Of a stretch of 64,000 nucleotides of DNA, positions 4,161 to 55,965 are shown piece by piece. Source of the DNA: an uncultured Bacilli bacterium (GTDB lineage Bacteria > Bacillota_I > Bacilli_A > RF39 > UBA660); NCBI GenBank assembly GCA_947581835.1, contig CANPVV010000002.1, positions 3,842 to 67,841 on the forward strand, given 5' to 3'. The position numbers were made by a program, and so were the translations under genes. Below the pieces are notes generated by a model that saw only the letters and a program-made list of their open reading frames with translations, was not told where the DNA came from and ran no database searches. Each line of letters starts with the position of its first letter. Positions within the stretch are counted from its first letter, which is position 1.

Positions 4161-5477
4161 TTATTCTTCCTTATTTTCCTCCTTTTCCAAAGTATCTTTC
4201 CTTAATTTTTCTTCTTGAAACAACATTTTCATAGTTGGATTATTATAAGTTAATTTCTTAATAGTTAAATCTTCAACCTTATTATTAGCAAGTCTTAAAT
4301 TATCATCTGTCTTAAGTAAATGTTCCTTAGTTTTTTGCAAATGTTCAATAGTTTTATCTATTTCCTCAATAGCTTTTTTAAATCTTTCACTAGCAAGCTG
4401 ATAATTTCTATTAAATCCTTCTTTAAATACATTCATTTTTTCTTCAAAGTGGGTAATATCAACATTCTGATTTCTAACCAATTCTAACTGTTTTCGGTAC
4501 TCCAAAGACTTACTAGCCAAATTCCTTATCAACGTAATTAAAGGAATAAAAAACTGCGGCCTAATAACATACATTTTATCATAATAATGACTTACATCTA
4601 CAATTCCATCATTATAATAATCATTATTTGCCTCTAGCATTGAAACAAGTACTGCATACTCACAATTTTTCTCATTTCTATCTTTATTAAGTTCTTTTAA
4701 AAAGTCCTCATTTTTATGTTTAGAAAGTGTCTCATCTGCCTCATTTTTCATTTCAAACATAATTGATACAATTTCATTACCATCATCATCATAATCTCTA
4801 AAAATAAAATCCCCCTTAGAACCTTTACTCGCATCATTATCTTTTTCAAAATAAGCATTTTTAAATAAAGGTCGTAATCTATTAAATAAAATACTACAAT
4901 GCTGTTCTAAAGATTCTCCAATCATTTTAGTAGACTGTTTAGACTTAAAATCTTTATAATACGCTATCTGTTCATCTTTATCTTTAATCTTAAGCTCATA
5001 TGTTTCTTTTATTGATTTTTCTTTTAACTCAAATTCTTTATCTTTTAATTCTAACTCTCCATTTAAAGAATCAATTTTTTTATCTTTTTCCATAACTACT
5101 TGCTGCATTTTAAGCTTACTATTAGCCTCTTCTAACTCAATTTTCTTTTTTAAATCAGCAATTTCTAACATTTTTTTATTAATTTCTTCTTGATGCTCTT
5201 TTAAAAACTCAAGCTTTATCATTTCCTCTTTTGTTTTCAAATCTCCCTGTAGCTCTTTTATTTCCAAATCTTTCTTACTAATAGTCTCATTAAACTCATT
5301 TTGAAGATTAGCTATAGCAATTTTTACTGCATTTTCTTTATCCTTATTATATTGTTCTTCTCTTACTTTTAATTCCTTCTCAAACTCTTGATCTCTTAAT
5401 TCTTTAACAATTAAATCATAATCACTTTCTTTAATTTTAAATATTGTTCCACATTTTGGACATTTAATTTCATTCAT
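4161..5477 (-). CDS. DUF2130-family coiled-coil protein with N-terminal zinc-ribbon (CPKCG)
   Basis: N-terminus MNEIKCPKCGTIFKIKESDYDLIVKELRDQEFEKEL matches the DUF2130 N-terminal signature. Long K/E-rich coiled coil. Confidence 0.55.
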   Translation of the reverse strand: MNEIKCPKCGTIFKIKESDYDLIVKELRDQEFEKELKVREEQYNKDKENAVKIAIANLQNEFNETISKKDLEIKELQGDLKTKEEMIKLEFLKEHQEEINKKMLEIADLKKKIELEEANSKLKMQQVVMEKDKKIDSLNGELELKDKEFELKEKSIKETYELKIKDKDEQIAYYKDFKSKQSTKMIGESLEQHCSILFNRLRPLFKNAYFEKDNDASKGSKGDFIFRDYDDDGNEIVSIMFEMKNEADETLSKHKNEDFLKELNKDRNEKNCEYAVLVSMLEANNDYYNDGIVDVSHYYDKMYVIRPQFFIPLITLIRNLASKSLEYRKQLELVRNQNVDITHFEEKMNVFKEGFNRNYQLASERFKKAIEEIDKTIEHLQKTKEHLLKTDDNLRLANNKVEDLTIKKLTYNNPTMKMLFQEEKLRKDTLEKEENKEE

Positions 5478-6451: not shown

Positions 6452-7066
6452 TTATTCATCTTCTAATTTAATAACAACTCTTCTATTAGGTTCTTCTCCA
6501 ATACTTTCAGTCCTAATTCCTTTAAAATCCGTCAAAATATTATGTACAATTCTTCTTTCATAAGAATTCATTGCATCCATTTCTACTGGCACTTTTGTTC
6601 TTTTAACCTCCCTTGCCAAATTTTTAGCCAATCTTTCTAACCTTTCAATCTGTCTATCCTTATAATCTTCCACATCTAATATAATCTTTGGCCCATTAAT
6701 GGGAGCTAAATTCTTTACAAACTGTCTTGCTAAAACTGTCAAAGCTTCCAAATTTTGCCCATTTTTACCTATAACAATTGGATTATTAGAAGTATACATT
6801 TTAAAAGTAGTAACATTTTCTTTAGTGCTAACTTCCATTGAAACTTCTATTCCCATACCTTTAACAATTTCTTTTAAATAATTCTCTAAATCAGTTAAAA
6901 TATCTACTTTTAAATATCCCAAACACTCATACTGTGTTCCTTTAAAAAGCCCACCTTTAATTTCTTCTAACTTATAAACTACTTCTTCATCACTAGCATT
7001 TAATTTAACAAGTACCCCATTTATTGCCTCTTCTTTTGTTTTTGCAACTACTTTTACTACATTCAT
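6452..7066 (-). CDS. khpB: Jag/KhpB RNA-binding protein (KH + R3H domains)
   Basis: Conserved position downstream of yidC. C-terminal R3H-like ...YERRIVHNILTDFKGIRTESIGEEPNRRVVI. Confidence 0.75.
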   Translation of the reverse strand: MNVVKVVAKTKEEAINGVLVKLNASDEEVVYKLEEIKGGLFKGTQYECLGYLKVDILTDLENYLKEIVKGMGIEVSMEVSTKENVTTFKMYTSNNPIVIGKNGQNLEALTVLARQFVKNLAPINGPKIILDVEDYKDRQIERLERLAKNLAREVKRTKVPVEMDAMNSYERRIVHNILTDFKGIRTESIGEEPNRRVVIKLEDE

Positions 7067-7086
7067 GACTACTTTCCTTTCTCTTA

Positions 7087-8085
7087 TTATCCCTTTTTCT
7101 CTTTCTTATTCTTTTTAGGTTTAATAACTATATCTTTATTTTCTTCTCTTTCATCTAACCATTTAAATAACCAATTTTGAATAACTACAAATCCATTTGT
7201 TGCTACCCAATAAAGAGCTATTGCTGTTGATAAATAAAGAGATGCCACCGATATCATAATAATCATAAACTTAAACATAAATTGCATTTGCTTATCAACC
7301 TCAGGATTACCTGAATTATTAGAAGACATTGCATTTTTAAATGATAAATAAGTTGTAAAAATAATTAACACAATAATTGCTATATAAGCCCATTCATGAT
7401 ATTCTAAAAGTCCTACAATCGGAGTTTTACCTAAAGTTAAACCAAAAAACTTATCCTCGAATATCGCTGGTGTTCTATTTATCGCTTGTAAAAAGGCAAA
7501 GAACAATGGAAGCTGAATGAAAGCAAGTAAACAACTACCAAAAGGACTAATATTATATTTCTTATAAACTAGCATCATTTCCTGTGATTTTTGAAGCATT
7601 GCCTCATTATCTGTTCTATTCTGATATTTTCTCTCAATTCTTGCTAATTCTGGTTGAGCTTTTTTCATATTTGAAGATTGTTTCATAGTCTTTCTTGATA
7701 CTGGAAGTAATATCAATCTAATAAGTAATCCTATAATTATAACTGAAAAACCAAAATTATTTAATAAATAACCTAATTTCAAAATAATAAACGCTAAAGG
7801 TTTAACAAATATACCTTCCCAAATCCCTGATGATTTATTACTATTTAATTTAAAATCTGCACACTTAGGCAATTTTTCATAATCAATCTTTGTTTGATCT
7901 TTATACTTGGTATATAATTCATCTAATTCTTTATCTTCCGGCTTACATAATATATCTCTTTGTAATACCTGTCCTGTTGCTTTATTTTCAACTGGCTGCT
8001 TATCTTCCATAATATAATTGCTATTCCCACAACCTGTTACCAACATAAATACTACCAGAAGTATACCAATTTTAATTTTTTTCAT
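7087..8085 (-). CDS. yidC: Membrane protein insertase YidC/Oxa1 (lipoprotein form, LVTGC lipobox)
   Basis: Signal/lipobox MKKIKIGILLVVFMLVTGCG. Multi-TM protein with a K-rich C-terminal tail. Conserved rpmH-rnpA-yidC-jag synteny. Confidence 0.8.
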   Translation of the reverse strand: MKKIKIGILLVVFMLVTGCGNSNYIMEDKQPVENKATGQVLQRDILCKPEDKELDELYTKYKDQTKIDYEKLPKCADFKLNSNKSSGIWEGIFVKPLAFIILKLGYLLNNFGFSVIIIGLLIRLILLPVSRKTMKQSSNMKKAQPELARIERKYQNRTDNEAMLQKSQEMMLVYKKYNISPFGSCLLAFIQLPLFFAFLQAINRTPAIFEDKFFGLTLGKTPIVGLLEYHEWAYIAIIVLIIFTTYLSFKNAMSSNNSGNPEVDKQMQFMFKFMIIMISVASLYLSTAIALYWVATNGFVVIQNWLFKWLDEREENKDIVIKPKKNKKEKKG

Positions 8086-8413
8086 GCTTTATTCCTTTCT
8101 CTAATAAATTTACTAACTCTTTTTCTTTTGTCTGAAAGTCTATTTTTAAAATATCCTTCCTTACCATTATAATATAATTCTTTCTATTTGAAAACAACTT
8201 TTTATTATTATCAATAATAACCCTAATCTGTCTTTTAAGTTTATTTCTTTCAACCGCATGACCAATACTTTTTGAAACCGCTATTCCAAATTTAGGAATA
8301 TCTCCTAAACTATCCTTATAATATATACTATAATATTTTGATTTTAAATACTTACCTTTATTAATTATTTCATTAAAATCTGTATTCTTTTTTACAATTT
8401 CGTATTTTTTCAA
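8072..8413 (-). CDS. rnpA: Ribonuclease P protein component
   Basis: 113-aa basic protein immediately downstream of rpmH. Overlaps the yidC start. Confidence 0.75.
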   Translation of the reverse strand: MKKYEIVKKNTDFNEIINKGKYLKSKYYSIYYKDSLGDIPKFGIAVSKSIGHAVERNKLKRQIRVIIDNNKKLFSNRKNYIIMVRKDILKIDFQTKEKELVNLLEKGIKHEKN

Positions 8414-8999: not shown

Positions 9000-9534
9000 A
9001 CCCCTCCAACAATTTAATTATACTAAATTTTTCTCTAATTGTCAAAAAAGTTATCTCTAAAACCTAACACCAATACTTTACATAAAAACTGTTAACCAAA
9101 AAAGTTACTAACAATTTTTTGTGGATAATGTGTATAACTTTTTTAAAAACTATCTTATTAACAATGAGTAATTTCCAAAAACTTAACCTGGAATATCTTG
9201 TCAACACCTTTTTTTAAGTTTTTTGTTAATAATTAACCACTTATAAACAAATTACTAAAACCAATATTATAAGTAATAATCTAATCTAAACTCCAATTTT
9301 CTTAATTTATCAACACTTTCAACTTTTACTCTCTATTTTCCCATTGTTAATTGTGAATTACCCTTTGTTAGCAATTGTTTATAGTGTTAATATTTTTTAA
9401 ACTCCCATAATTACTAGGGTAATCGTGTGTATAACTCTAATTTTATCAACATTTTGATTTTTTTCCCATTTTTAGCTTTTCTTCTTCTAATTTTTGCGAT
9501 ACAATTACTATACAAAAACATTTAAGACTGCGGG
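9000..9534. promoter_or_regulatory. oriC: oriC part 1: AT-rich dnaA-upstream region with DnaA boxes
   Basis: Perfect TGTGGATAA (complement of TTATCCACA) at 9120-9128. TGTGTATAA at 9130-9138 and 9426-9434. TTATCAACA at 9307-9315 and 9443-9451. About 535 bp of non-coding DNA directly upstream of dnaA. Confidence 0.65.
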
Positions 9535-10890: not shown

Positions 10891-11035
10891 ATAATATCTT
10901 AAAATAATGTGTATAAAATAGCAATTATAAACATTTTTAAAACTTAAATTCCCCTAAAATAAAGGGTAAAACAAACTTATAAACTTTACTAACAGTATAA
11001 TAAATATTAATAATAAAAAGAAAGAAGGAATATAT
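10891..11035. promoter_or_regulatory. oriC: oriC part 2: dnaA-dnaN intergenic with DnaA box and AT-rich unwinding region
   Basis: TGTGTATAA at 10908-10916. Extremely AT-rich 145 bp. Consistent with the bipartite Bacillota origin architecture. Confidence 0.5.
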
Positions 11036-12154
11036 ATGAAATTCACAATTGAAAAAAATGTAATCTTAGAAGGATTAAATAATGTTATTAGAGCTATCTC
11101 TACTAAAAATGTTATACCAGTTCTAAATGGTATTAAGTTTGAATTAAAAGAAGAAGGTTTATACTTAACTGCCAGTGACTCCGAACTAACCATCAAAGTC
11201 TTAATCGAATCTAAAGAAATTAAACAAGTTCATAATTTAGGTGGTATTATTATTCAAAGTAAATATATATTAGATATAGTTCGAAAAATGCCAAGTGATA
11301 TTATCAACTTTGAAGTTATTGATGGTTTAAAAATTAAAATCTACACTGATAATAACCAATATAATTTAAATTGCTTAGATATAAATGATTACCCCGACGT
11401 TAAACTTGAAGTAAATAAAGACCCAATAATTATTGAAGGAACTGTCTTTAAAACTATAATCAATCAAACTGTTTTTGCTATCTCAACCCAAGAATTACGC
11501 CCAATTTTAACCGGAGTTAACTTTAAATTTAGTAAAAATAATCTTGAAGTAGTTGCCACTGATTCTTATCGTTTAGCCAAAAAAAATATTAAACTAGAAA
11601 CACCTGTTGAAAAAGATGTCGAAATAGTTATTCCTGGTAAAAACATTATGGAATTAGAAAAAATAATAACTGATGAAGAAAATATAGAAATTCATATCTT
11701 TAATAATAAAGTCCTATTTAAGTATAAAAATGTTCATTTCCAAAGCAATTTATTAAGTGATAACTATCCAAATACTTCTAACCTTATCCCTAGTGAATTT
11801 GCTTATATTATCAAAGTTTCTAAAAAAGATTTCAATGATGCTATCGATCGTGCTGCACTATTAACTCTTGGTAAAGATAAAAATATTGTTAAAATGACTC
11901 TTGAAAATACTAAAATGGTTATCAATTCTTATGCATCTGAAATAGGTAAAGTAGAAGAACAACTAACAGTTGAAACTAATAATAAAGAAAAGCTTGAAAT
12001 ATCCTTCTCATCTAAATATATGCTTGAAGCTATAAAAACAATGCAAGAAGAGGAAATTTTACTTCTCTTAAATAGTGACGTTAAACCTTTAATTATTAAA
12101 TCTTTAACTGACGAATCTCTAATTCAATTAATATTACCTATTAAGACCTATTAA
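11036..12154 (+). CDS. dnaN: DNA polymerase III beta sliding clamp
   Basis: 372 aa immediately downstream of dnaA. RBS AGGAATATATATG. Typical three-domain clamp length. Confidence 0.85.
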   Translation: MKFTIEKNVILEGLNNVIRAISTKNVIPVLNGIKFELKEEGLYLTASDSELTIKVLIESKEIKQVHNLGGIIIQSKYILDIVRKMPSDIINFEVIDGLKIKIYTDNNQYNLNCLDINDYPDVKLEVNKDPIIIEGTVFKTIINQTVFAISTQELRPILTGVNFKFSKNNLEVVATDSYRLAKKNIKLETPVEKDVEIVIPGKNIMELEKIITDEENIEIHIFNNKVLFKYKNVHFQSNLLSDNYPNTSNLIPSEFAYIIKVSKKDFNDAIDRAALLTLGKDKNIVKMTLENTKMVINSYASEIGKVEEQLTVETNNKEKLEISFSSKYMLEAIKTMQEEEILLLLNSDVKPLIIKSLTDESLIQLILPIKTY

Positions 12155-12299
12155 TATGTTAATAATCCCCTTTTTATTAACATTTTTTCCTTAAATATTC
12201 CAATAACTAAAAAAAATTTAACCTCATCGACACGGTTCGACAAATTTTGCTCCTTTTTTGTGATATAACATAGATATTTACACGAAAGGGGGCAATTTT

Positions 12300-12752
12300 A
12301 TGTCTTATAAAATCACAAAAAAAACATATGCTTTAATCTCTAATAAAGATACAACTAAAGTAATTGAAGAAGAGCATATCGAAAATATAAGAGACGAATG
12401 TGTAAATATAATTAATGAAAACTGTTTTCATTATGGCTCAAGCCTAGAAGGTCGCCAGCAAGGAAGTGCTTATTTTTTAGGTAGTAATTATAAACCACCA
12501 ATTATTTTAAATGAACACGAAAATATAATTTTAATACCTACCCATTCTATTCGCAATAATAAGTGCTGTTGGTTAGTCTTAGATAAAATTCTAAATTATT
12601 ACCCAACCCTTAAAAATTGTACACAAATAGAATTTATCAATAATCAAAAAATCGACATTCCTCTAAGCTACACTGTTTTTGATAAACAAGTTCTGCGAGC
12701 CACTCGTCTGGAATCCATTTTAAGAGGACGAAATGTTCAAAAATACCTTTAA
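12300..12752 (+). CDS. comK: Competence transcription factor ComK homolog
   Basis: NCFHYGSSLEGRQQGSAYFLGSNYKPPIILNEHENIILIPTHSIRNNKCCWL...IDIPLSYTVFDKQVLRATRL aligns block-for-block with B. subtilis ComK (RFFGSSYAGRKAGTY...HKPPIMVDPSNQIFLFPT...CGW...ELPISYNSFENQVYRTAWL). Confidence 0.8.
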   Translation: MSYKITKKTYALISNKDTTKVIEEEHIENIRDECVNIINENCFHYGSSLEGRQQGSAYFLGSNYKPPIILNEHENIILIPTHSIRNNKCCWLVLDKILNYYPTLKNCTQIEFINNQKIDIPLSYTVFDKQVLRATRLESILRGRNVQKYL

Positions 12753-12840
12753 AAAGGTGTTTTTTTATGTTATAATATTTCTAGGTATAGGAGTACGTAT
12801 TTACCTATAAAATTAAAATTAGACAAAGTAGGGGCGGAAA

Positions 12841-13944
12841 ATGGAAATCTGTAATTTGAAATTATTAAATTTTCGGAATTATGAATCACTTGAAATAAAA
12901 TTTAGTCCAACTACTAATATTATCTATGGTCAAAATGGCATGGGTAAAACCAATATTATAGAAGCAATATATATGCTGGCCTTAACTAAAACTTTTCGCT
13001 TAGGAAATGATAATGTAGTTATCAAAAAAGGCAAAAATATTGCTAAAATAGAGGGTTTAATTAAAGATAATATTTTAAATACTTATAAAATAATCATTAA
13101 TGATACTGGCAAAAGAATTAAAATTGATAATAATAAAATATCTAAAGTAAGTGATTATATTACTAAAATCAATGTTGTTCTTTTTAACCCTGATGATTTA
13201 AAAATAATTAAAGATACTCCTATGACTAGACGAAAGCTTTTAAATATAGAAATCTCGGGTTTAAAGAAAGAATATGTTATTTACTTAAATAATTATAATA
13301 AAATCTTAAAACAACGAAATGCTTATCTAAAAGCTTTAAATAAAAAAAGTCTTGGTTCTTCTGATTTTCTAAATATTTTAACTGAAGAATTAGTTACTAC
13401 TGGTTTAAAAATAATGTCTATTCGCGAAGAATTTATCAACAATATTAATAAATATATCTCTGACATTTATTATGAAATAACCAAAAAAGGTACTTTATCA
13501 CTAAAATATAAGAGTGAATTTAAAGGCAAAACTAAAGACCAACTTCTAAAATTATACGCCAAAAATATTTCCCGGGAAATAATCATGGGTAAAACTCTCT
13601 TTGGCCCCCAACATGATGACGTTGAATTTATCGTAAATAATGAAGTTGTAAAAGTCTACTCCAGCATGGGGGAACAAAAAAACAGTGTTATTGCCTTTAA
13701 ACTTGCCGAAATTAAAAACATAACCCACACTTTAAATCGCAAACCTATTCTAATATTAGATGATTTATTTAGTGAATTAGACCAAGAAAAGATTAATAAC
13801 ATCATTAACTTAATAGATATTGATGTCCAAACTTTTATAACTACTACTGAAATAGATTTTGTAAATAAAGATTTACTTGCTAAATCTACGATTTTTCACG
13901 TTATAAATGGTACTGTTAAGGAGGAAAAAACATATGGAAAATAA
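12841..13944 (+). CDS. recF: DNA replication/repair protein RecF
   Basis: Walker [14 protein letters not shown]. Conserved dnaN-recF-gyrB position. RBS GGGGCGGAAAATG. Confidence 0.85.
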
Positions 13945-18312: not shown

Positions 18313-18395
18313 GCATTATTTTTTTTATTCAAATTATTAAAATGACCTATAAATAAAAATGTTAGTAACTTAAAAAATATAGGAAAATTATAAAA

Positions 18396-18411
18396 TGTTT
18401 CACGTGAAACA
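18396..18411. promoter_or_regulatory. parS: parS site 1 (perfect TGTTTCACGTGAAACA)
   Basis: Exact match to the Bacillota parS consensus TGTTNCACGTGAAACA. Lies within the 18-bp palindrome ATGTTTCACGTGAAACAT. Confidence 0.85.
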
Positions 18412-18618
18412 TTACTCCCTCTCTTGAGATATTTAAAGAAATTACAATGTAATTAGCTTTATGTTTAATCTTATATTTAATTTAAATGTTAAAAGCAATA
18501 TATTCAATCTATCTGCACAATAAATATATCTAAACCTAAAAATCCAAGAATCCTAAAATATAAAATCTAAATTAATTACAAATAAAACTATTTAAAAACA
18601 ACTTATCAACACTCCAAA

Positions 18619-18634
18619 GGTTTCACGTGAAACA
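18619..18634. promoter_or_regulatory. parS: parS site 2 (GGTTTCACGTGAAACA, 1 mismatch)
   Basis: 15/16 match. Preceded by ACTTATCAACA. Confidence 0.75.
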
Positions 18635-18694
18635 TCGAATTCTGAAAAAAGAAAAAATAAAATTAAAAAATCAATTCAAAAAAGTTATAAACAA

Positions 18695-18710
18695 TGTTTC
18701 ACGTGAAACA
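18695..18710. promoter_or_regulatory. parS: parS site 3 (perfect)
   Basis: CAATGTTTCACGTGAAACATT. Confidence 0.85.
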
Positions 18711-18851
18711 TTACAAACATAAAAACAATTTTTTACAAACTAAAACAAAATTTTAAAAGAAAAAACAATAAACTTTAGAATTTTAAAAAAGAAAATTAAA
18801 ATTTTAAAAATAAATTACAAAAAATAATCAAAAATATTAACTTATCAACAA

Positions 18852-18867
18852 TGTTTCACGTGAAACA
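18852..18867. promoter_or_regulatory. parS: parS site 4 (perfect; 22-bp palindrome CAATGTTTCACGTGAAACATTG)
   Basis: Exact consensus. Preceded by ACTTATCAACA (DnaA-box-like TTATCAACA). Confidence 0.85.
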
Positions 18868-18899
18868 TTGTCATAATTTCTAAAAAATGTAAAATTTTA

Positions 18900-18915
18900 T
18901 GTTTCACGTGAAACA
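18900..18915. promoter_or_regulatory. parS: parS site 5 (perfect)
   Basis: ATGTTTCACGTGAAACAT immediately upstream of the tadA region. Confidence 0.85.
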
Positions 18916-19049
18916 TATACTTGCCAAAACCTCAAAAATGTGGTAAATTAATATCGTGCAACAAATATATTGTAACCTGGTCAGAGTTGGAAAACAGCAG
19001 CCATATCAATCCCTATTTGTGTGCACATTTTTTATTGGAGGAAAATAAA

Positions 19050-19475
19050 ATGCCAGAAAAATACTTTCAAATTCTTATGAAATTATGCCATAAAGCTATC
19101 AAACATAAAGAAGTTCCCATCGCTGCTATAATAGTCCATGAAAACAAGATTATTGCTAAAGCTTATAACACTAGAAAATCTAAAAATAATCCTCTGAATC
19201 ATGCCGAAATGTTAGTAATTAAAAAAGCCAGCCAAAAATTAAAAAGTTGGCGTTTAAATAATTGTGATCTTTATGTAACTTTAAAACCCTGCTCAATGTG
19301 TGAATCTACTATTAAACAAGCTCGTTTATCTAATGTTTACTATTTATTAGAAAAACCAGAAAATAAAAAAGAATACTATAAAACCAATTTTTCAAAAGCA
19401 AACATACGTACGCAAAATGAAGAATATTCTCAATATTTAACAGACTTTTTTAAGAATTTAAGAGACAAAGCCTAA
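19050..19475 (+). CDS. tadA: tRNA-specific adenosine deaminase (CDA-fold zinc deaminase)
   Basis: HAEMLVI...PCSMCE zinc-binding motifs. Conserved position upstream of dnaX. Real start is probably ATG 19050 after RBS GGAGGAAAATAAA; the ORF-track start 18921 is upstream and overlaps parS. Confidence 0.75.
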   Translation: MPEKYFQILMKLCHKAIKHKEVPIAAIIVHENKIIAKAYNTRKSKNNPLNHAEMLVIKKASQKLKSWRLNNCDLYVTLKPCSMCESTIKQARLSNVYYLLEKPENKKEYYKTNFSKANIRTQNEEYSQYLTDFFKNLRDKA

Positions 19476-32948: not shown

Positions 32949-34817
32949 TTAAAGTTGCAATTTATTATCTTGCATCTTTTTTAAATGTTTCTGTAATTTT
33001 TCATCTACTGCATAAACATAACAACCTTTAATTCCTCTTGTAAGAAGTACTCGATAAGTATTTTTAATAATTGTATCAGCCATTTTTTCATAATAATCTT
33101 TATCTTGTTTAAGTAAAACCTGTAACCCATACAATGATTTTTCTGTATTAGCTCTAGCTTTATAATCACTAACCACTTTTTTACCATCATACTTTAAATC
33201 CGGCCCAATAATAACTCCAATATAATCAAACTCTAACCCCTGTACATTATATACACACCCAATTTCATTTATTGCACTTTCCCTCGTTGCAAAAGGTTCC
33301 CCATGTTTTAAATTCCAACTCATTGAAAAATCTCCAATTTTAATATCATGGTAATCTTGATTATCTGCATATCTAACTTTTCTTGGCCAACAAAACCCCG
33401 CCACCATTCTAGCATTATTATTTGTATTTTTCTCCTTAATTATTTTTTGTACTTCTTCTGGTGAATCCATTACTCTAAAATCAAAATTAAATCTTACTTT
33501 ACATCTCTTATTATATAAAAAATTATCAATAAAATCTAAATAATTATCACTCCCATTGCATCTAAATTGGCTTTTAAGTTCTAAGTTATCAATTAAAGCC
33601 TCAAAATACTTTGCATAAAATAAAATATTTTCTATTAACCCAATATCTCTTAAAGTAATTATTTGAGCCTCATCTACAAAAAACACACTTAATTTAGACG
33701 CATTTATAATTTCTTTTATTTGATTTTCTCCAATATTATTATGAATACCTGATTTTTCCTGTAATCTATGAGCCTCATCAACTAATAAAAAATCATATTT
33801 ATTAGACTTATCTTTAAAAAAATAACCCGAACTTTTAAACAGTTCATGAATACTTATCTCATTATCTTTACTTACCAACATATTTTTATATACTTTTCTT
33901 GGTGCCATATTTTTAGAAACATAAGCCCCCATAAGTCCATTAGATAATAGTTCTCCTAAAGCATTAATTGCTAAAACTGATTTTCCTGTTCCTGGACCTC
34001 CTTTAACAATCATAACTCTTTTTTTCCCATCAGTAAAAGATAATCTAGCATTAGTAATAATCTCTTCCATAATAACTTTTTGTTCATCAAGTAAAGTAAA
34101 CTCTTTTTTTCCCTTAGTCATATTAATAATTGAATCTAAAAGTCTCTTAGTAGGTCTAATTTCACTTTTATCTACAATGTTTATAATTTCTAAATTATCC
34201 CCATATTTTATATTAGAATTAATTATCTCTTTTAACTCTATTTTATCATTCATCCCATACATATTAACTTTACTATAATAAGGTCTATATTTTTTATTAT
34301 ATAAAGCATCACTCATATCTAACTCATAATTATGTAAAACTACTAAAGGTATAATATTAATCTTTTCTTTTTCTATATTAATATTATAATTATTAAGAAT
34401 TTGAGCATAACTAAGTACTTGATAAGCTGGGTGTAAAACATTTTTCTCATGCTTATTTATCTTTGTTCTAACTACTCCATCAACTGATTTAATAACTCTT
34501 GAATAACTCCATTGTTTTAATTCTATCAAAATCATAATTGGACTTTTACTCTCATTATATCCTGTAATAATCATATCAATACTTTTTGAGGTAAGAGGAA
34601 TATTATATTCTAAGATTATACCTACATTATCAGGCAATTCATCAATAACTTGTGCCATTATAGGTAAACTATTAGCCCAAGCTTTAATTTGATTATATTT
34701 AGTTTTTCTTTTATATTTTTCTTTATAAGCACTATATACTTTATCACTTATAACCCCATCTCTAACATACTCCATAAACTCATTTTTTAAACATGAAAAC
34801 AATATCACTAAAATCAA
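32949..34817 (-). CDS. PD-(D/E)xK nuclease-like N-domain fused to DUF2075 SF1-helicase-like ATPase
   Basis: N-terminal ...SIDMIITGY...IMILIELKQW (D...ELK nuclease-like motif). Walker A GGPGTGKSVLA. Walker B LLVDEAHRL. C-terminal VYNVQGLEFDYIG...VLLTRGIKG, typical of DUF2075 / UvrD-like C-terminal region. The first ~14 codons of the ORF-track call are probably leader; likely start is MEYVRDG. Confidence 0.6.
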   Translation of the reverse strand: MILVILFSCLKNEFMEYVRDGVISDKVYSAYKEKYKRKTKYNQIKAWANSLPIMAQVIDELPDNVGIILEYNIPLTSKSIDMIITGYNESKSPIMILIELKQWSYSRVIKSVDGVVRTKINKHEKNVLHPAYQVLSYAQILNNYNINIEKEKINIIPLVVLHNYELDMSDALYNKKYRPYYSKVNMYGMNDKIELKEIINSNIKYGDNLEIINIVDKSEIRPTKRLLDSIINMTKGKKEFTLLDEQKVIMEEIITNARLSFTDGKKRVMIVKGGPGTGKSVLAINALGELLSNGLMGAYVSKNMAPRKVYKNMLVSKDNEISIHELFKSSGYFFKDKSNKYDFLLVDEAHRLQEKSGIHNNIGENQIKEIINASKLSVFFVDEAQIITLRDIGLIENILFYAKYFEALIDNLELKSQFRCNGSDNYLDFIDNFLYNKRCKVRFNFDFRVMDSPEEVQKIIKEKNTNNNARMVAGFCWPRKVRYADNQDYHDIKIGDFSMSWNLKHGEPFATRESAINEIGCVYNVQGLEFDYIGVIIGPDLKYDGKKVVSDYKARANTEKSLYGLQVLLKQDKDYYEKMADTIIKNTYRVLLTRGIKGCYVYAVDEKLQKHLKKMQDNKLQL

Positions 34818-38698: not shown

Positions 38699-40231
38699 CT
38701 ATTTTTTTACTTTAATAACAAATTGATAAGCATCCGGTAAGTCACTTTCCTCTAAAGTAAGTTCAAATCCTTTTTGAGTTAAAATATCTTTAACTGTTCT
38801 AATTTCATTAATCGCCGATTTTAAATCTATACCTAAGACTTCTTCTTGTTTAACTTCATATGTTGGATCTAATGTATCAATTAATGAAGTTGGATCAAAA
38901 TTATCTAATTGTTCAATATTTTCATTAACTGGTGTAATTGTTGGCGTAATTTCTTCAACTCTTGGAGTTTCATATGGAGTAAAATCTTTATTTTCAATTG
39001 GACTTTGCATATCTAAAGAAGCTGGCTCTTTGGCAATTTTAAGACTAGTATTTCCCATATTAACATTTTGAAAAGCCTCACTATGGGTTGTTAAATTAAC
39101 TGAATCTGAATAATTAGGTTGAGGTACAACTGGAGGGGCATCAAAAGTAGGAGTAGCCACTTGTGGTGGAGTTAAAGCCTCTATATTAACCGTCGAATTA
39201 TTTTGAGGTTGAGGCTCCATATTTTCCACTTTAGGTGCTTCAACTGGAGTAACATTTTGTATACCATTAGCATCCTCTGTTGAAGTAGCATTATTATCTG
39301 GATTTCCATTCTGAGGTGGTGCCACTTGATTATTATTTAAATTTATTACTGGAGTTTGTAAAGTATTTTCTTCCATATTCATATTAACAGTCTCACTTTC
39401 TAAGAAATTAAAGAAATTTCCTTGCGAATTATTTGTAGCTTGTTCAACTGGAACAACGTCAGGATTATACATTTTTTCTCGTTCTATTTCTTTAATTCTT
39501 TGGGTTAATTCACTATTTTCATTTACACTCGGTAATTCCGTTGCTGCTCGTCTTATTTCTTCTATATCTAAAGGTTTTACAAGTGGTATATCCGGTTCAA
39601 TATATTCTTTATTATCTGGTTCTCTTTGTTTAGCTAAAGCTTTCTTTAAAGCATCATCTAATTCTCTTACTGTCATACGCTCTCGAATTATTTTTTCTAA
39701 CCACATTCGTTGCTCATTAGGTTCAGATAAAATAAGCAAACTTCTAGCATGACGTTCACTTATCTGATTATTCATTAAAGCTTCTTGAACAGTCTCATCA
39801 AGATTTAACAACCTAAGTTTATTAGCAATCGCACTTTGAGATACACCTAACTTTTTAGCAAGTTCACTTTGAGTATAACCTTTATCTAAAATATTTTTAT
39901 AACTTCTAGCTTCTTCAATAGGTGATAAATCTCTCCGTTGAATATTCTCTACAATTGCTACTTCTGCACTTTTATTATCATCAATTTGCGCTATAATCGC
40001 TGGTACATTTTTAAGTCCCGCAATAGTTGCTGCTTTATATCTTCTCTCACCAGCAATTATTTCAAATTTATCACCAAGACGTCTTACTACGAGGGGTTGG
40101 ATTATTCCATGTTGTTTTATTGAATTTGCTAATTCTTCAAGACCTTTCTCATCAAAATTGAGGCGAGGTTGAAAACGATTGGGAATAATATCCTCAATAG
40201 GTATTTGCATAATATTTTGCTCTAAATTCAT
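38699..40231 (-). CDS. parB: ParB/Spo0J-family partition protein, elongated (510 aa) with long low-complexity N/P/Q/T-rich linker
   Basis: ParB N-domain IQPLVVRR....EIIAGERRYKAA. HTH YTQSELAKKLGVSQSAIANKLRLL. About 230-aa insertion rich in N, P, Q and T before the C-terminal domain. Confidence 0.8.
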   Translation of the reverse strand: MNLEQNIMQIPIEDIIPNRFQPRLNFDEKGLEELANSIKQHGIIQPLVVRRLGDKFEIIAGERRYKAATIAGLKNVPAIIAQIDDNKSAEVAIVENIQRRDLSPIEEARSYKNILDKGYTQSELAKKLGVSQSAIANKLRLLNLDETVQEALMNNQISERHARSLLILSEPNEQRMWLEKIIRERMTVRELDDALKKALAKQREPDNKEYIEPDIPLVKPLDIEEIRRAATELPSVNENSELTQRIKEIEREKMYNPDVVPVEQATNNSQGNFFNFLESETVNMNMEENTLQTPVINLNNNQVAPPQNGNPDNNATSTEDANGIQNVTPVEAPKVENMEPQPQNNSTVNIEALTPPQVATPTFDAPPVVPQPNYSDSVNLTTHSEAFQNVNMGNTSLKIAKEPASLDMQSPIENKDFTPYETPRVEEITPTITPVNENIEQLDNFDPTSLIDTLDPTYEVKQEEVLGIDLKSAINEIRTVKDILTQKGFELTLEESDLPDAYQFVIKVKK

Positions 40232-40313
40232 AAAATCAGCCCCTATTTTTACTTATAATTAATTATAACAATAAAAAACATATTTTTCAATTAGTTATAC
40301 TTAAAAATATAAA

Positions 40314-41111
40314 TTAGCTTAAAAATTTAAACACTTCACTATCCCCTAATATAGGATAATAATTTATTAATTCTTTCTTTAAATAAAGAGCTTTATTATA
40401 TAAATTTGGATATTTTAAAATATTAGGATTTTGAGTACATATAGCCTCAAATATTCTTGCTCTATCTTCATCTGGATATGTATGCGAATACTCATCTATA
40501 AAAAATATATTATCAGGATTTTTCTCGCTTAAAGTATAATTATAAATATATGGTTTAGTATAAGAAAGATTATAAATAAAATTTTCTGGATTATAACTAT
40601 TCCAATCTGGAAAAGGGATCATATCTTGTAAAGTAAATTCAATATTATGCATAAGTTCATGTGCCAAAATACTTGTTAAATTAGAAGTTGTAGCATCTAT
40701 TACTATTTCATATGTATTATTATCAATTAAAGAATATGCGGCGGGATTTGCTATTTGAGTAGTTTTATCTTTAGGAGCTAATTTTCCTGTTAAATAAATA
40801 TTTAAACCATTAGAATTATTATTTTGAAAAACTGAAAAAAACTCACTAGGAAATTTAGCTAAAAAAGTATCAATTTTCTCAGTTGCCTCCATCACTTTTT
40901 TAGAATCACTTAAAGGAGTAACTGTAAAATCTGGAAACTGTTTATCTTTTAAATCAAAAACAATGTTAATATTATAAGACTTATTAACACTTTTAGCCTG
41001 TGTTAAATTATCAACTTGATTATAACTTTGACTGTATTTTTGACTATCTTTTGGAAATAAAAAGTTTATTAAAACTAAAAAAAATATAATTAAAGTAAGA
41101 AATTTATTCAT
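40314..41111 (-). CDS. Secreted protein with HExxH motif (putative Zn-metallopeptidase-like)
   Basis: Signal peptide MNKFLTLIIFFLVLINFLFP. ILAHELMHNIEF HExxH motif. Confidence 0.4.
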   Translation of the reverse strand: MNKFLTLIIFFLVLINFLFPKDSQKYSQSYNQVDNLTQAKSVNKSYNINIVFDLKDKQFPDFTVTPLSDSKKVMEATEKIDTFLAKFPSEFFSVFQNNNSNGLNIYLTGKLAPKDKTTQIANPAAYSLIDNNTYEIVIDATTSNLTSILAHELMHNIEFTLQDMIPFPDWNSYNPENFIYNLSYTKPYIYNYTLSEKNPDNIFFIDEYSHTYPDEDRARIFEAICTQNPNILKYPNLYNKALYLKKELINYYPILGDSEVFKFLS

Positions 41112-41144
41112 ACTTAATTATATTCTAAAAAATATTTTTTATGA

Positions 41145-41852
41145 CTATCTTAAAGGTTTTTTTAAAATTTTATCATAAGTTCTAGGATATATCTCTGGTG
41201 TTTCTTTTAACTTTTTTATTTTAATAATAGTACGATTAGAATTTTCTATCGGAAGTAAAAACTTAATAATATCTGTAACCTCACAATTTAATATTTCTAA
41301 AGTCTTAGCACTTTCCTCTAATTCTTGAGTAACAATTCCTTTCATAGGTAAAAAATAACCATTTACTTTTAAATAAGGAATAGCTAATTCTAAAATAATA
41401 CGAATATTAGAAACAGCTCTAGTTGTTACTATATCAAAATATTCACGATAATTTTTAGGTAAATCTTCTACTCTTTTACCTATAACTGTAATATTTGTTA
41501 ATTCTAATTTAGAAATAACTTTATTTAAAAACAATATTTTTTTATTATTACTATCAACCAAAGTTATATCTAATGAAGGAAAAACAATTTTTAAAACTAA
41601 ACCCGGAAAACCCGCCCCAGTTCCTATATCTAAAACTTTTAAAGGCTCCTTAAAATTACAAGCTTTAATTAAAGTTAAAGAATCATAAAAATGTTTTAAA
41701 TAAATATCTTCAGTTTTAGTTATAGCAGTTAAATTAAATTTTTGATTATATTCTTGTAAGAGATTTTTATAAGTTTCTAAGTTAGATAACTGTTTTTCAG
41801 TTAAAGATATATTTATTTTATTTAGTTCATTTAAAAATTCATTAATATTCAT
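41145..41852 (-). CDS. rsmG: 16S rRNA (guanine527-N7)-methyltransferase RsmG (GidB)
   Basis: VLDIGTGAGFPGLVLKI SAM motif. Immediately downstream of mnmG. Confidence 0.85.
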   Translation of the reverse strand: MNINEFLNELNKINISLTEKQLSNLETYKNLLQEYNQKFNLTAITKTEDIYLKHFYDSLTLIKACNFKEPLKVLDIGTGAGFPGLVLKIVFPSLDITLVDSNNKKILFLNKVISKLELTNITVIGKRVEDLPKNYREYFDIVTTRAVSNIRIILELAIPYLKVNGYFLPMKGIVTQELEESAKTLEILNCEVTDIIKFLLPIENSNRTIIKIKKLKETPEIYPRTYDKILKKPLR

Positions 41853-41867
41853 TTTCTATTTTCCTTT

Positions 41868-43733
41868 TTATTTACTATATTTTTTCTTTAAATAAACAGA
41901 TAGAATTGATAAATCAGAAGGATTTACCCCACTTATTCTGGCAGCTTGACCAATAGATTTAGGTCGAATTTTTTCTAGTTTTTGTCTGGCCTCAGAAGCT
42001 AAATTAGTTATATCTTGATAATTAATATCTTCAGGTATAAGTTTTTCTTCTAATTTAAGCATTCTTTCTACTTCTTTATAAGATTTAGCAATATACCCCT
42101 CATATTTTATTTCTATTTCTACTTCTTCTAAAACTTCTTCTTTATAGTTTAAATCTAAAAAATTCTTTAAAAAATCAATATTTATCTCTGGCCTTTTTAA
42201 AAGTTGATATAAAGATATACTAAATGTTGGTACTTCTAAATTATTCTTAATAAATAACTCTTTATTCTTATCATTTAAACTAAGATTTGTATTCTTGAGT
42301 ATTTCTTTTAGATTATTAATATCTTTTAGTTTATTCTCTAACTTTTGATATCTTTCCTTATCTATAGTACCATGTTCATATCCAATTTTTCTTAATCTTA
42401 AATCAGCATTATCATGACGTAGTAAAAGCCTAAATTCAGCTCGAGAAGTAAGCATACGATATGGCTCTACAGTTCCTTTAGTTACTAAATCATCAATTAA
42501 AACTCCAATATAAGATTCATTTCTCTTTAATATTAAAGGCTCTAAATTATTTAATTTATGATGCGCATTAATTCCTGCGATAAGTCCCTGACCTGCAGCT
42601 TCCTCATATCCACTTGTCCCATTTATTTGACCAGCAGTAAATAAATTAGCAATAATCTTATTTTCTAGTGATGGTCTCATTTCAAGAGGATCTATCGCAT
42701 CATATTCTATCGCATAAGCATATTTAGTTATAACCGCCTTTTCTAATCCTGGTAAAGAGTGAACCATTTGCTCTTGAATATCTCGTGGCATAGACGTAGA
42801 AAATCCTTGAATATACCATTCGTCATAATAAATACTCTCCGGCTCTAAAAATAATTGATGCTTTTCTTTATCAGCAAAACGCACAATTTTATCTTCAATA
42901 GATGGACAATATCTAGGTCCTATCCCAGTGACATAACCTCCATACATAGCTGATTTATTTAAATTAGCTTTAATAATTTCATGAGTTTTAGGTGTCGTAT
43001 AAATTAAGAAACACTTTTGTTGTTCATTTATTTTATATAATGGTTCAGTATCAAAAGAAAAAGTATAATATTTATCATCACCAGTTTCTGGTTTCATTTT
43101 ACTAAAATCAATACTACTCTTTTTAATACGGGGAGGAGTTCCTGTTTTTAATCTTTGGATAGTTAAACCTAATTTTTTTAAATTATCACTTAAATGATTA
43201 CTTCTTTTCTCGCCGTGAGGACCACCAGGATTATTCTCGTCTCCAATCAAAATATTTCCTTTTAAATATGTACCAGTAGTTAAAATTACCGCTTTACTTA
43301 AAATTTCTTCACCATTTGCTAAAACTATTCCCTGAACAGTATTTTCTTTAACAATTAAGTTTTCAACCATACCTTCAATAATAGTTAAATTTTTAGTATC
43401 TCTTAAAGCTTTAAGCATATTTTTAGGATAAGTTATTTTATCTGCTTGAGCCCTCAAACTCCGTACCGCAGGACCCTTTCCATTATTAAGCATTTTTATT
43501 TGAAAGTGAGATTTATCGGCAATAATACCCATAAGCCCCCCTAAAGCATCTATTTCTCTTACAATTATACCTTTAGCTGTTCCTCCAATTGAAGGATTAC
43601 AAGGCATATCAGCAATATTATTTATATTAGCAGTTACTAAAAGCGTTTTACAACCCAAAACTGCAGCAATATGAGAAGCTTCACAACCAGCATGCCCACC
43701 TCCAACAACAATTATATCATACATATTTATCAC
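41868..43733 (-). CDS. mnmG: tRNA uridine 5-carboxymethylaminomethyl modification enzyme MnmG (GidA)
   Basis: N-terminal YDIIVVGGGHAGCEAS FAD motif. 621 aa. Confidence 0.9.
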   Translation of the reverse strand: MINMYDIIVVGGGHAGCEASHIAAVLGCKTLLVTANINNIADMPCNPSIGGTAKGIIVREIDALGGLMGIIADKSHFQIKMLNNGKGPAVRSLRAQADKITYPKNMLKALRDTKNLTIIEGMVENLIVKENTVQGIVLANGEEILSKAVILTTGTYLKGNILIGDENNPGGPHGEKRSNHLSDNLKKLGLTIQRLKTGTPPRIKKSSIDFSKMKPETGDDKYYTFSFDTEPLYKINEQQKCFLIYTTPKTHEIIKANLNKSAMYGGYVTGIGPRYCPSIEDKIVRFADKEKHQLFLEPESIYYDEWYIQGFSTSMPRDIQEQMVHSLPGLEKAVITKYAYAIEYDAIDPLEMRPSLENKIIANLFTAGQINGTSGYEEAAGQGLIAGINAHHKLNNLEPLILKRNESYIGVLIDDLVTKGTVEPYRMLTSRAEFRLLLRHDNADLRLRKIGYEHGTIDKERYQKLENKLKDINNLKEILKNTNLSLNDKNKELFIKNNLEVPTFSISLYQLLKRPEINIDFLKNFLDLNYKEEVLEEVEIEIKYEGYIAKSYKEVERMLKLEEKLIPEDINYQDITNLASEARQKLEKIRPKSIGQAARISGVNPSDLSILSVYLKKKYSK

Positions 43734-43849
43734 TTACTTTCTCTTTTTAAAAAGTTACTATATAATATTTAAACATATAAAAAATCACTTCTTTTAAAGC
43801 GACTTTATTATAGCATTTTTTTACATTTTTATCAATTCCTATTAATTTT

Positions 43850-45043
43850 CTAATCTAAACTATCCATTAAAAGAAAATCCTTTAATTTTATATGTCTTAC
43901 AGTACTTGTAGAATAATCAATATCATCATTACTAATAATTATTTTTTGACATAAATTATCTAAATTAGCAAATGCTTGAAATTCTCTTTCATAAGCCTTA
44001 TCCTCAGCTAAAGTATATGTTACTTGAATATAATATTTTTTATTTTTTTTCTCAGCCAAAAAATCTATTTCTCGTCCTTGATTATCAAAAACATTTAATT
44101 TATATCCCCGATAAATCAATTCATTATAAACAATATTTTCTAAATTATGACTTAAATCATAATGATTATCTATGCATCTAATAGAATTTAGAGAAACATC
44201 AGAATTATATAATTTAAAATAATAAACAAGTTCTCTTTTTGTTTTTAAAGAATATTCTCTAACTTTTTCTACAATATAAGCTTCTTCTAAATAATCTAAA
44301 TATTTAATTATAGTATTAATTGAACAATCTTCATTTTTATTTTTAATATAATTGTGTATTGATTTAGCTGAAAATACTCGGCTATTAGAACGAAGAACAT
44401 AATTAACTAAGCTTCTAAATAAGTTTTCCTTTTTTATTTTATATCGATTAATTAAATCATTAAAAACAATAGTATTATTTAAATCACTAAGATAACGATA
44501 AATTGATTCTTCTTCATTAAATTCAAATCTTTTAGGAAATCCACCCCAAATTAAATAATCACTAATAGAACAAGTTTTACCTAATTCTTTAGTATATTCT
44601 ATAATTTCTCGATAAACAAATGGTCTTATTTGAAAAGATACATATCGGCCACTTAATTCTTTAGTAAATTCTTTAGATAACAATTTAGAATTAGAACCTG
44701 TAATAAATAAAGAATTATTATATAATCTTAAAGTTTTACAAGCAACCTGCCAATTTTCAATTACTTGTATTTCATCTAAAAATATATAGCATTTACCCTT
44801 TTGTTGGTGTTTTTCAATATAAACTATTAATTCAGTAGAATTAGAAATATTTGTTAAAACCTTTTGATCTTCAAAATTTAAATAAATTATATTATTACTT
44901 TTTTTACTAATTTCTTGTCTTATTTGATCTAATATTATAGATTTACCGCATCTCCTAATTCCTGTAATAATTTTAATTAAATCTGAGTCATAAAACTCTC
45001 GTATTTTTTTTAAATAATGTTCTCTATATATCATTATTATCAC
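43850..45043 (-). CDS. AAA-family ATPase with DUF4143 C-terminal domain (AAA_14/DUF4143 'ATP-binding protein')
   Basis: Walker A ITGIRRCGKSI. Walker B CYIFLDEIQ. Typical ~400-aa architecture. Inserted between mnmE and mnmG. Confidence 0.6.
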   Translation of the reverse strand: MIIMIYREHYLKKIREFYDSDLIKIITGIRRCGKSIILDQIRQEISKKSNNIIYLNFEDQKVLTNISNSTELIVYIEKHQQKGKCYIFLDEIQVIENWQVACKTLRLYNNSLFITGSNSKLLSKEFTKELSGRYVSFQIRPFVYREIIEYTKELGKTCSISDYLIWGGFPKRFEFNEEESIYRYLSDLNNTIVFNDLINRYKIKKENLFRSLVNYVLRSNSRVFSAKSIHNYIKNKNEDCSINTIIKYLDYLEEAYIVEKVREYSLKTKRELVYYFKLYNSDVSLNSIRCIDNHYDLSHNLENIVYNELIYRGYKLNVFDNQGREIDFLAEKKNKKYYIQVTYTLAEDKAYEREFQAFANLDNLCQKIIISNDDIDYSTSTVRHIKLKDFLLMDSLD

Positions 45044-45138
45044 CTATTATAATTATACTGAAAGATTTTTTACTTGTCAACAAAATCTTTCAGTACCAGT
45101 GAAACATTTTACAATTATTAATAAAATCTTTCAGTAGA

Positions 45139-55477: not shown

Positions 55478-55651
55478 TTTTATAACTTCCTCTCTTAAAA
55501 TTTTCTCTTATGTTATTTTATAAATTAATAAGATATGATTATTTATTGAGACATATTTGTCTCATATTATGATATTAGAATACCATATTGGGGCAAATTT
55601 GTCAAGGCTGCAATGGGGCATATTTGGTATTATTTTGACAGAGGCGATTAT

Positions 55652-55864
55652 ATGCTTAAAGAATATAGAATACGTAAAAAGATAAGTCAAGAAAAATTAG
55701 AAAATATGACAGATTTAGATAGAAAAACCATTTTTAGAATTGAAAATGACTTAAATATTCCACAATTAGACACTTTTGCTAAATTAGTAGAAGCATTAGA
55801 ATTAACAGACGAAGAAATTTTATTAGAAATTAAAAAAATAATTAAAAAAGAAAAGCATAAATAA
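55652..55864 (+). CDS. XRE-family HTH transcriptional regulator (Cro/CI-like)
   Basis: MLKEYRIRKKISQEKLENMTDLDRKTIFRIENDLNIPQLDTFAKLVEALELTDEEI. Start taken at ATG 55652 inside ORF-track frame 55613. Confidence 0.7.
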   Translation: MLKEYRIRKKISQEKLENMTDLDRKTIFRIENDLNIPQLDTFAKLVEALELTDEEILLEIKKIIKKEKHK

Positions 55865-55965
55865 TACTCATTAGAAACTATTTATAATAATAGTTTTTAT
55901 TATTGTCGAATTTTGTCGAACGAAATTTCTTGATTATTCTTATTTATTATTTATAATAGTATCTT

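Follow-up and report, generated by a model that had tools for sequence, protein, structure and literature searches.

A ComK-family gene fixed between dnaN and recF near the replication origin of uncultured gut Bacilli, with a predicted Spo0A box in front of its promoter

We analyzed a stretch of 64,000 nucleotides from an uncultured Bacilli bacterium of the RF39 lineage (contig CANPVV010000002.1, positions 3,842 to 67,841; hereafter the window), in which an open reading frame (ORF) situated between dnaN and recF encodes a protein of the ComK family. The same gene order was found in every related locus with enough flanking sequence, and a heptamer identical to the core of a Spo0A binding site (0A box) stands at a conserved distance from the comK promoter in most relatives. 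With confidence a little above even, we propose that the gene encodes a functional ComK activator reduced to its conserved domain, which forms its own transcription unit, would be gated by Spo0A, lies close to the origin and is fixed between dnaN and recF. This is a comparative-genomics observation in abundant uncultured gut bacteria and not a new kind of system.

The comK ORF is intact and runs from ATG to TAA over 150 codons, as seen in the ORF list and in the sequence. The Pfam ComK profile (PF06338) matches its product with an E-value of 5.3e-30 and 104.6 bits (cut-off 22.3) over profile positions 3-149 of 152, and BLASTP against COMK_BACSU, whose reference sequence was confirmed through an exact look-up, gave 28% identity over 147 amino acids (aa; E 2e-22). 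A profile-sequence comparison with Bacillus subtilis ComK using hhalign returned a probability of 99.7%. In the BLASTP alignment GSSLEGRQQG, KPPI, CCW and LSYTVFDKQVLRATRL of the window protein face the corresponding B. subtilis blocks; most of these block residues are invariant in 20 family members, which share 20 invariant residues in total. A previous sequence-only reading of this DNA had called the gene a ComK homolog with four shared blocks (GSS..GR..G, KPPI, C.W and LSY..F..QV.R.T.L). All four are indeed present and aligned, and the near full-length profile match together with the BLASTP and hhalign results bears the assignment out. No match was found in an NCBIfam scan, which is uninformative because B. 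subtilis ComK is likewise unmatched there, the library having no ComK model. A homologue search with the window protein yielded 75 proteins, all of them carrying PF06338 and nearly all of about 150 aa; ComK proteins of distant members of the clade match the profile with E 5e-44 and 7e-40. Across 14 orthologue pairs dN/dS ranged from 0 to 0.45, and the gene is under purifying selection despite its fast divergence. From these comparisons we take the ORF to be a real ComK-family gene, a new member of a known family. Some records of metagenome-assembled genomes (MAGs) already name this protein 'competence protein ComK'.

The ComK domain occupies residues 10-158 of the 192 residues of the B. subtilis protein. 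The window protein ends 7 residues past the domain and its alignment with COMK_BACSU stops at residue 157. The tail of B. subtilis ComK (159-192) holds the FMLYPK stretch for MecA/ClpCP targeting and possibly matters for activation. The sequence-only reading had spoken of the master competence regulator: family membership stands, a B. subtilis-type C-terminal tail is absent according to alignment and domain limits. Short paralogues are known from other Bacillota, such as Bacillus cereus ComK2 and Staphylococcus aureus ComK; their link to transformation is weak or conditional, and some of these proteins lack the C-terminal extension; we know of no report of such short paralogues in the dnaN-recF slot. 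An AlphaFold2 model of the window protein, built on 20 homologues, reached a predicted local distance difference test (pLDDT) score of 91.9 and a predicted template modelling (pTM) score of 0.85. Using Foldseek, the nearest solved folds were LytTR DNA-binding domains, namely B. cereus 3d6w, pneumococcal ComE and AgrA, and these matches (3d6w, 4cbv, 4xqn) had E-values of 9e-4 to 0.1, probabilities of 0.95-1.0, TM-scores of 0.4-0.59 and identities of 7-14%. No PDB chain matches the window protein at sequence level, nor does the Pfam LytTR profile match it. The likeness is one of fold, shared by all of the ComK family, and does not amount to membership in LytTR; model and fold support a DNA-binding role for the family in general, not for this gene in particular. 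The resemblance between ComK, RemA, LytTR and SwrD folds has also been noted, independently, in a 2026 preprint (PMC13232269). As a side observation, the LytTR regulators, to which the nearest solved folds (ComE, AgrA) belong, bind direct repeats.

In B. subtilis and many other Bacillota the dnaN-recF slot holds the S4-domain gene rlbA/yaaA and the recF-gyrB slot holds remB/yaaB. The window shares the dnaA-dnaN-x-recF-(y)-gyrB-gyrA block; in contrast, the first slot is occupied by the ComK-domain gene, and neither an S4 gene nor remB is present. dnaA lies upstream and gyrB and gyrA lie downstream of dnaN-comK-recF according to the ORFs, with which Pfam labels on identical metagenomic contigs agree. 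The gaps measure 145 bp (dnaN-comK) and 88 bp (comK-recF) and therefore leave no space for a yaaA/rlbA-type S4 gene, and recF abuts gyrB. An evolutionary link between the comK of this slot and remB would be pure speculation. We scanned contigs of one genome per species and obtained 259 relatives, the best 80 of which were analyzed, with gene order taken from tblastn searches using six origin-region proteins of the window. All 74 loci with enough flank, each containing dnaN, comK and recF, show the order dnaA-dnaN-comK-recF-gyrB-gyrA. These relatives fall into tiers of 85-94%, 59-74% and 47-50% DnaN identity, and thus the position between dnaN and recF noticed in the sequence-only reading extends through the clade down to 47% DnaN identity. 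The adjacency of comK and recF is unbroken in 74 of 74 loci with a gap of 66-156 bp. The dnaN-comK gap measures 66-170 bp except in five loci with one inserted gene; in all five of these species the insertion separates comK from dnaN and leaves comK-recF intact. Because it is kept in every related genome examined, the dnaN-comK-recF arrangement is not accidental.

The relatives are MAGs from the gut whose records bear the titles uncultured Bacilli, 'Tenericutes', 'Mycoplasma sp. CAG:776' or Candidatus Ventrenecus. The closest species-level genome among the loci analyzed is a rabbit-gut MAG (L011) with 94% DnaN and 73% ComK identity. The GC content of the window is about 27%. Contigs of about 1.18-1.19 Mb carry the locus in some relatives, whose genomes are therefore very small. 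In the literature that we searched, the dnaN-comK-recF setting, with comK in place of the usual S4-domain gene, appears undescribed, as does the strict comK-recF linkage over more than 70 species-level genomes; searches on ComK or competence in RF39/Tenericutes lineages found nothing relevant, the name 'Comantemales' belonging to order 4C28d-15 and not to RF39. As to the inserted genes, one encodes a 161-aa dCMP-deaminase-like protein (L043, 4412-4897), the enzyme class of B. subtilis ComEB, and L048 and L049 have a dnaN-comK gap of the same size; two others encode small membrane proteins (L076, 4524-4919; L087, 3203-3736).

We then considered the sequences between dnaN and comK. Alignment of this spacer in 24 close relatives revealed three conserved blocks, TTCGACAAA, T.TG.TATAAC and GAAAGG.GG. 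The last is a Shine-Dalgarno sequence conserved 7-9 nt before the comK ATG. The second is an extended -10, which is T.TG.TATAAC in the 24 close relatives and TG-n-TAnnnT in distant ones; it gives substance to the plausible promoter that had been mentioned for this region, and the comK transcription start site can be predicted from it. No -35 hexamer was found 16-18 nt from this -10, and because of this lack of a -35 at canonical spacing a two-hexamer consensus scan missed the promoter. Directly behind the dnaN stop, a hairpin with a T-run has a minimum free energy of -7.5 kcal/mol (z -5.8), and none of 200 shuffles folded as well. Many relatives have a hairpin and T-run after dnaN, more clearly than the window does (L044, L052, L065, L078, L083, L089). 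A consensus terminator scan did not call the hairpin of the window, whose stem has no G-C pairs, and it is a putative terminator by sequence and folding. The sequence-only reading was right to place comK inside the dnaA-gyrA cluster; membership in a simple operon is less apt given the hairpin after dnaN and the separate promoters of comK and recF. As for the block TTCGACAAA, four assignments were rejected: a DnaA box (sequence differs), a CodY box (poor alignment at the invariant CGAC), a canonical -35 (21-nt spacer) and a ComK AT-box (wrong pattern).

Read on the opposite strand, the heptamer TTCGACA becomes TGTCGAA, which is exactly the consensus 7-bp core of the 0A box (PMC3485338; PMC2731898). 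On the minus strand, positions 12226-12242 of the window read TGTCGAA-ccg-TGTCGAt and thus contain two boxes with 3 bp between them; tandem Spo0A sites of this form have been described (PMC2731898). The TCGACA direct repeat that had been spotted upstream of the gene consists of ATCGACA and TTCGACA with a 10-bp period and is conserved in relatives; it is best read as a tandem Spo0A box, that is, as a predicted site. Exact copies of TTCGACA are present in 58 of 76 distinct comK upstream regions. Their density there is 7.74 per kb, compared with 0.134 per kb in the other 782 kb of the loci, an enrichment of about 58-fold. Counted to the first TG-n-TAnnnN, the spacer behind the box measures 21 nt in 52 cases and 11 or 31 nt in the deepest lineages, values that differ from 21 nt by whole helical turns. 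When 59 loci were compared, the mean match to the box was highest at an offset of 10 bp upstream of the conserved copy. The match there is usually degenerate, and the best second box at this offset is the one in the window (6 of 7 positions); the deepest lineages have a 6/7 box 20 bp upstream instead. That the comK of this slot has a conserved Spo0A box at a fixed distance from its promoter appears undescribed in the literature searched.

Is there a Spo0A to read such a box? In a close relative (L010, 87% DnaN identity), a response regulator with a Spo0A_C domain is encoded some 2 kb upstream of dnaA, and its contig also carries the comK of the dnaN-recF slot. This protein scores 227 bits with the NCBIfam equivalog model TIGR02875, above the cut-off of 200. 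MAGs named 'Bacilli bacterium' contain more than 100 clusters of Spo0A proteins with 63-91% identity, and the stretch SRVERAIRHAIEV, which we take to be the DNA-recognition helix of B. subtilis Spo0A, is identical in the three Spo0A sequences read from these MAGs. Since spoIID and spoIIID were found in the neighbourhoods of the relatives' spo0A, at least part of the clade sporulates, in agreement with PMC10868615.

The competence window of B. subtilis is opened and also closed by Spo0A~P, which binds the comK promoter (PcomK) directly at five sites (PMC3297582). By analogy of sequence, we read PcomK of the window as controlled by Spo0A~P. Its architecture favors activation, but the control may instead be repressive, as it is at the Spo0A site that overlaps the -35 of B. 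subtilis PcomK (PMC3297582).

In Spo0A-dependent sigma-A promoters of the spoIIG type, 0A boxes cover a -35-like element that is set some 22 bp away from the -10. PcomK of the window resembles them in its perfect 0A box, the tandem box at 3 bp, the lack of a -35 at 17 bp and the 21 nt to the -10, as far as can be told from sequence. From these elements the following working can be proposed. The hairpin and U-tract behind dnaN would limit read-through into comK, which would be transcribed from a sigma-A promoter with an extended -10 and no normally spaced -35. The conserved Spo0A box 21 nt upstream of the -10, tandem in the window, would replace the -35, and because the promoter carries this box instead, transcription is proposed to be set by Spo0A~P, the master regulator of stationary phase and sporulation, in parallel to the direct Spo0A~P control of B. 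subtilis comK. A hairpin after comK falls inside the recF promoter region and may keep comK transcripts apart from recF. ComK itself would activate target promoters, most plausibly those of DNA-uptake and recombination genes elsewhere in the genome. Finally, as the gene is next to oriC, its copy number would follow replication initiation and could add a dosage input.

The location of oriC was approached through DnaA boxes (TTATCCACA, at most one mismatch). Five lie upstream of dnaA at 9120-9451 and one in the dnaA-dnaN spacer at 10908-10916, out of 34 matches in total compared with 19.8 expected, which puts oriC at about 1.3-3 kb from comK. The GC skew of the window shows no clean switch at dnaA. 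The idea that dosage and expression of comK are tied to replication initiation, put forward in the sequence-only reading, is possible with regard to dosage, by analogy with the origin-proximal comCDE of pneumococcus. The sequence evidence points more directly to Spo0A, and expression is probably set by Spo0A~P instead, or as well, if the repeat is a tandem Spo0A box.

Several observations weigh against a Spo0A-gated competence activator. The box reads TTGACA, the sigma-A -35 consensus, in 8 loci and is absent from ten, and spo0A was not found within the 64-kb window. Non-sporulators are predicted in related orders (PMC10868615); some lineages that keep the box may be non-sporulating and, if they are without Spo0A, would need another reader of the site. 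The last 34 residues of B. subtilis ComK are missing from the protein, which diverges faster than its neighbors, with 50-62% identity where DnaN has 85-92%. Pfam annotation of about 50 window ORFs revealed no comG, comE, comF, dprA or ssbB among ORFs of at least 100 aa, nor any sporulation genes, and a prepilin motif scan in all six frames of the window found none. K-boxes, defined as paired AAAA-N5-TTTT with spacers of 8, 18 or 31 bp, were absent with 18- or 31-bp spacers from the window and altogether from the region upstream of comK; the promoters of ComK targets are outside the window. One pattern with an 8-bp spacer occurs at 18721-18754 (expected 0.02). It falls in the AT-rich parS spacer that follows gyrA, and 89 of 90 loci lack a counterpart; we do not count it as evidence of a ComK regulon. 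AAAA-N5-TTTT is present after the comK stop in close relatives as a single copy, which distant ones have not kept. With no late genes, prepilin motif or conserved K-box in the window, the output of the regulator is unsupported, and the natural-transformation programme suggested by the sequence-only reading is an assumption based on family membership.

The comK-recF junction has features of its own. The extended -10 of recF begins 14 nt past the comK stop, and its T.TG.TATAAT does not vary among close relatives and occurs in almost every distant one. A leader element follows, whose core GTATAGGAGTA starts 6-10 nt after this -10 and was found in about 69 of 70 distinct loci; it extends as GTATAGGAGTA[CT] in the comK-recF spacers of L007-L090 and has a single exact copy within the window. 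In most loci a hairpin, (A)ATAGGTAT-loop-ATACCTAT(T), contains the core and precedes TTATTTT. The designated 9-bp helix pairs in 80% of cells, compared with 27-42% when the partner is slid, and covariation is seen at the two outer pairs; the core is more conserved than its pairing partner. Folding showed that the window's own hairpin is not unusually stable, RNAalifold chose a trivial 4-bp hairpin and not the longer helix, and no Rfam family matches the element. Rfam searches of the whole window and, with permissive settings, of 12100-12900 returned only a tRNA, an SRP (signal recognition particle) RNA and chance-level matches. Judged by its sequence, the element may be a comK terminator, a 5' stabilizer with a Shine-Dalgarno-like loop, or an operator. 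Tentatively, comK transcripts would see the full hairpin and terminate, and transcripts from the recF promoter would begin inside its 5' arm.

How do other explanations fare? The gene could be the same ComK in the same place with Spo0A not involved, TTCGACA being a noncanonical -35-like element or the site of another regulator, expression being roughly constitutive or fed by read-through from dnaN, and oriC gene dosage being the control that matters. We regard this as unlikely, while giving it real weight. TCGACA is one base away from the TTGACA of the eight loci, yet at position 2 of the box C outnumbers the base of a true -35 by 58 to 8. The extended -10 of comK could work without an activator, and the hairpin behind dnaN, with no G-C pairs, may terminate poorly; on the other hand, the 21-nt spacer in 52 loci is outside the 16-18 nt of sigma-A promoters and shifts by whole helical turns, and a second box sits at exactly 10 bp, with a further perfect tandem site at 55904-55920. 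That some motif-keeping lineages may be non-sporulating and that spo0A is not in the window would suit a Spo0A-free scheme, but the close relative L010 has Spo0A on the same contig as comK.

Less probable again, in our view, is a ComK-fold DNA-binding protein which no longer controls uptake and in these reduced genomes has taken on a new role in replication, recombination or a stationary-phase state, for instance by controlling recF-gyrBA or by acting at the origin. Such a role would explain the constant adjacency to recF, which is unbroken in 74 loci even with genes inserted upstream, although conserved gene order from dnaA to gyrA is common without regulatory meaning. The recF promoter, with no -35, begins 14 nt past the comK stop and precedes an unexplained, highly conserved leader element, but no binding motif links ComK to it. 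While the protein is without the C-terminal tail and diverges faster than its neighbors, it retains the core residues shared with B. subtilis ComK. Likewise, the lack of competence genes and convincing K-boxes in the window fits repurposing, but 64 kb devoid of late genes allow few conclusions on a genome of a megabase or larger. The last alternative, a decaying relic or a chance or mis-called ORF without function, can draw on the relatively fast divergence as its sole point; it is effectively refuted by an intact ORF of about 150 aa in more than 75 species, a dN/dS well below 1, the conserved Shine-Dalgarno sequence and promoter, the strong Pfam match and the confident fold prediction.

The Spo0A-gated activator, our preferred reading, can be set beside known systems. 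It shares with B. subtilis ComK the same Pfam domain over its whole length, the 28% identity over 147 aa, the core blocks and, as predicted from the box, direct Spo0A~P control of the promoter, which is documented there (PMC3297582). The two differ in length (150 and 192 aa), residues 159-192 having no counterpart here, in location, an unrelated locus there as opposed to the oriC-adjacent dnaN-recF slot here, and in the absence of ComK boxes upstream of the window gene. In Streptococcus pneumoniae, comCDE reportedly lies near oriC and triggers competence through gene dosage, a finding that is ascribed to Slager et al. in 2014. Both cases have a competence-family regulator within a few kb of oriC that is conserved in its clade, a position that allows copy-number control; they differ in that the pneumococcal genes encode the ComDE two-component system, in contrast to a ComK domain that is known here from sequence alone.

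If ComK still drives uptake, abundant uncultured gut lineages whose genomes can be as small as about 1.2 Mb would be expected to undergo transformation or to scavenge DNA, with Spo0A activation, and possibly replication stress, as a predictable trigger. This would be useful for the ecology of horizontal gene transfer and for future genetic access. If ComK does not drive uptake, the strict comK-recF linkage would point to a repurposed ComK. A bolder scheme, which we think improbable, is a two-input switch in an order-level clade of genome-reduced gut Bacilli, in which Spo0A~P acting through a spoIIG-like promoter and oriC dosage would together set a DNA-uptake and recombination state, with recF coupled or insulated through the promoter-within-hairpin arrangement. 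If true, it would be an independent, ComK-based counterpart of the logic of pneumococcal comCDE, in organisms that are naturally transformable or DNA-feeding.

Table 1. Features of the dnaN-comK-recF region, in window coordinates
Feature	Position	Strand	Basis
dnaN, upstream neighbor	11036-12154	+	ORF; PF00712/PF02767/PF02768 on identical contigs
Terminator-like hairpin directly 3' of the dnaN stop, 10-bp A/U stem and U6	12156-12189	+	Folding
Distal Spo0A-box-like heptamer TGTCGAT, 6/7 to TGTCGAA	12226-12232	-	Sequence, offset analysis
Proximal perfect Spo0A box TGTCGAA (+ strand TTCGACA), 21 nt upstream of the -10	12236-12242	-	
Putative comK promoter core, TRTG-extended -10 TGTG-a-TATAAC	12259-12269	+	Conservation
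comK Shine-Dalgarno sequence GAAAGGGGG	12284-12292	+	Conservation in relatives
comK-family coding sequence, domain-only ComK, 150 aa	12300-12752	+	ORF, PF06338, COMK_BACSU identity, AlphaFold2, dN/dS
Putative recF promoter, extended -10 TATG-t-TATAAT	12766-12776	+	Promoter scan (with TG), conservation
recF leader element, core GTATAGGAGTA (12785-12795) in hairpin TAGGTA...TACCTA	12782-12807	+	
recF, downstream neighbor	12841-13944	+	ORF; SMC_N/AAA_23 on identical contigs

A perfect tandem, TGTCGAA-ttt-TGTCGAA, at 55904-55920 (+) is the only other intergenic occurrence of such a site in the window. Read on the minus strand, TATAAA follows 17 nt later. The site comes shortly after a 19-codon ORF (MSELVDASPNAQDTIINNK), which has a strong Shine-Dalgarno sequence, and 40 nt past the stop of a convergent gene for an XRE-type helix-turn-helix (HTH) protein (Pfam HTH_3); the neighboring genes are at 55940-55999 (-) and 55613-55864 (+). 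In 20 kb around the spo0A of relatives (L091-L093), spo0A lies between tpiA and a phosphoglycerate mutase gene, and no comF genes were found beside hpf-secA. An Agr-like quorum-sensing set is close to spo0A in these loci and comprises AgrB, a gene for a 36-aa peptide, a histidine kinase and a LytTR response regulator.

Further observations concern the origin region. The palindrome TGTTTCACGTGAAACA, the parS (ParB-binding) consensus, occurs five times in about 520 bp (18396-18915; four copies perfect, one with 1 mismatch; expected 0.01) within the intergenic region between gyrA and the small SRP RNA gene (18313-18946), which suggests a dense cluster of parS sites close behind gyrA. The parB gene is at 38699-40231 (-), at the end of a block mnmE-mnmG-rsmG-(unknown)-parB (38699-46488, -) about 30 kb to the right of dnaA, and rnpA-yidC-jag (6452-8413, -) is still just left of dnaA. 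As the mnmE-parB block is separated from rnpA-yidC-jag, the origin region is rearranged relative to the usual Bacillota order. The SRP RNA gene (18947-19037, +) matches Rfam RF00169 with 55 bits and is overlapped by the mechanical TTG start of a tadA-like deaminase ORF (18921-19475, +), the real start of which is probably the ATG at 19051 (MPEKYF...). Accessory genes in the origin region are located at 4161-5477 (-), 32949-34817 (-), 43850-45043 (-) and 49196-49858 (-), and their types are DUF2130, a Schlafen-group-3-type helicase, an AAA_14/DUF4143 ATPase and a DUF3800 protein.

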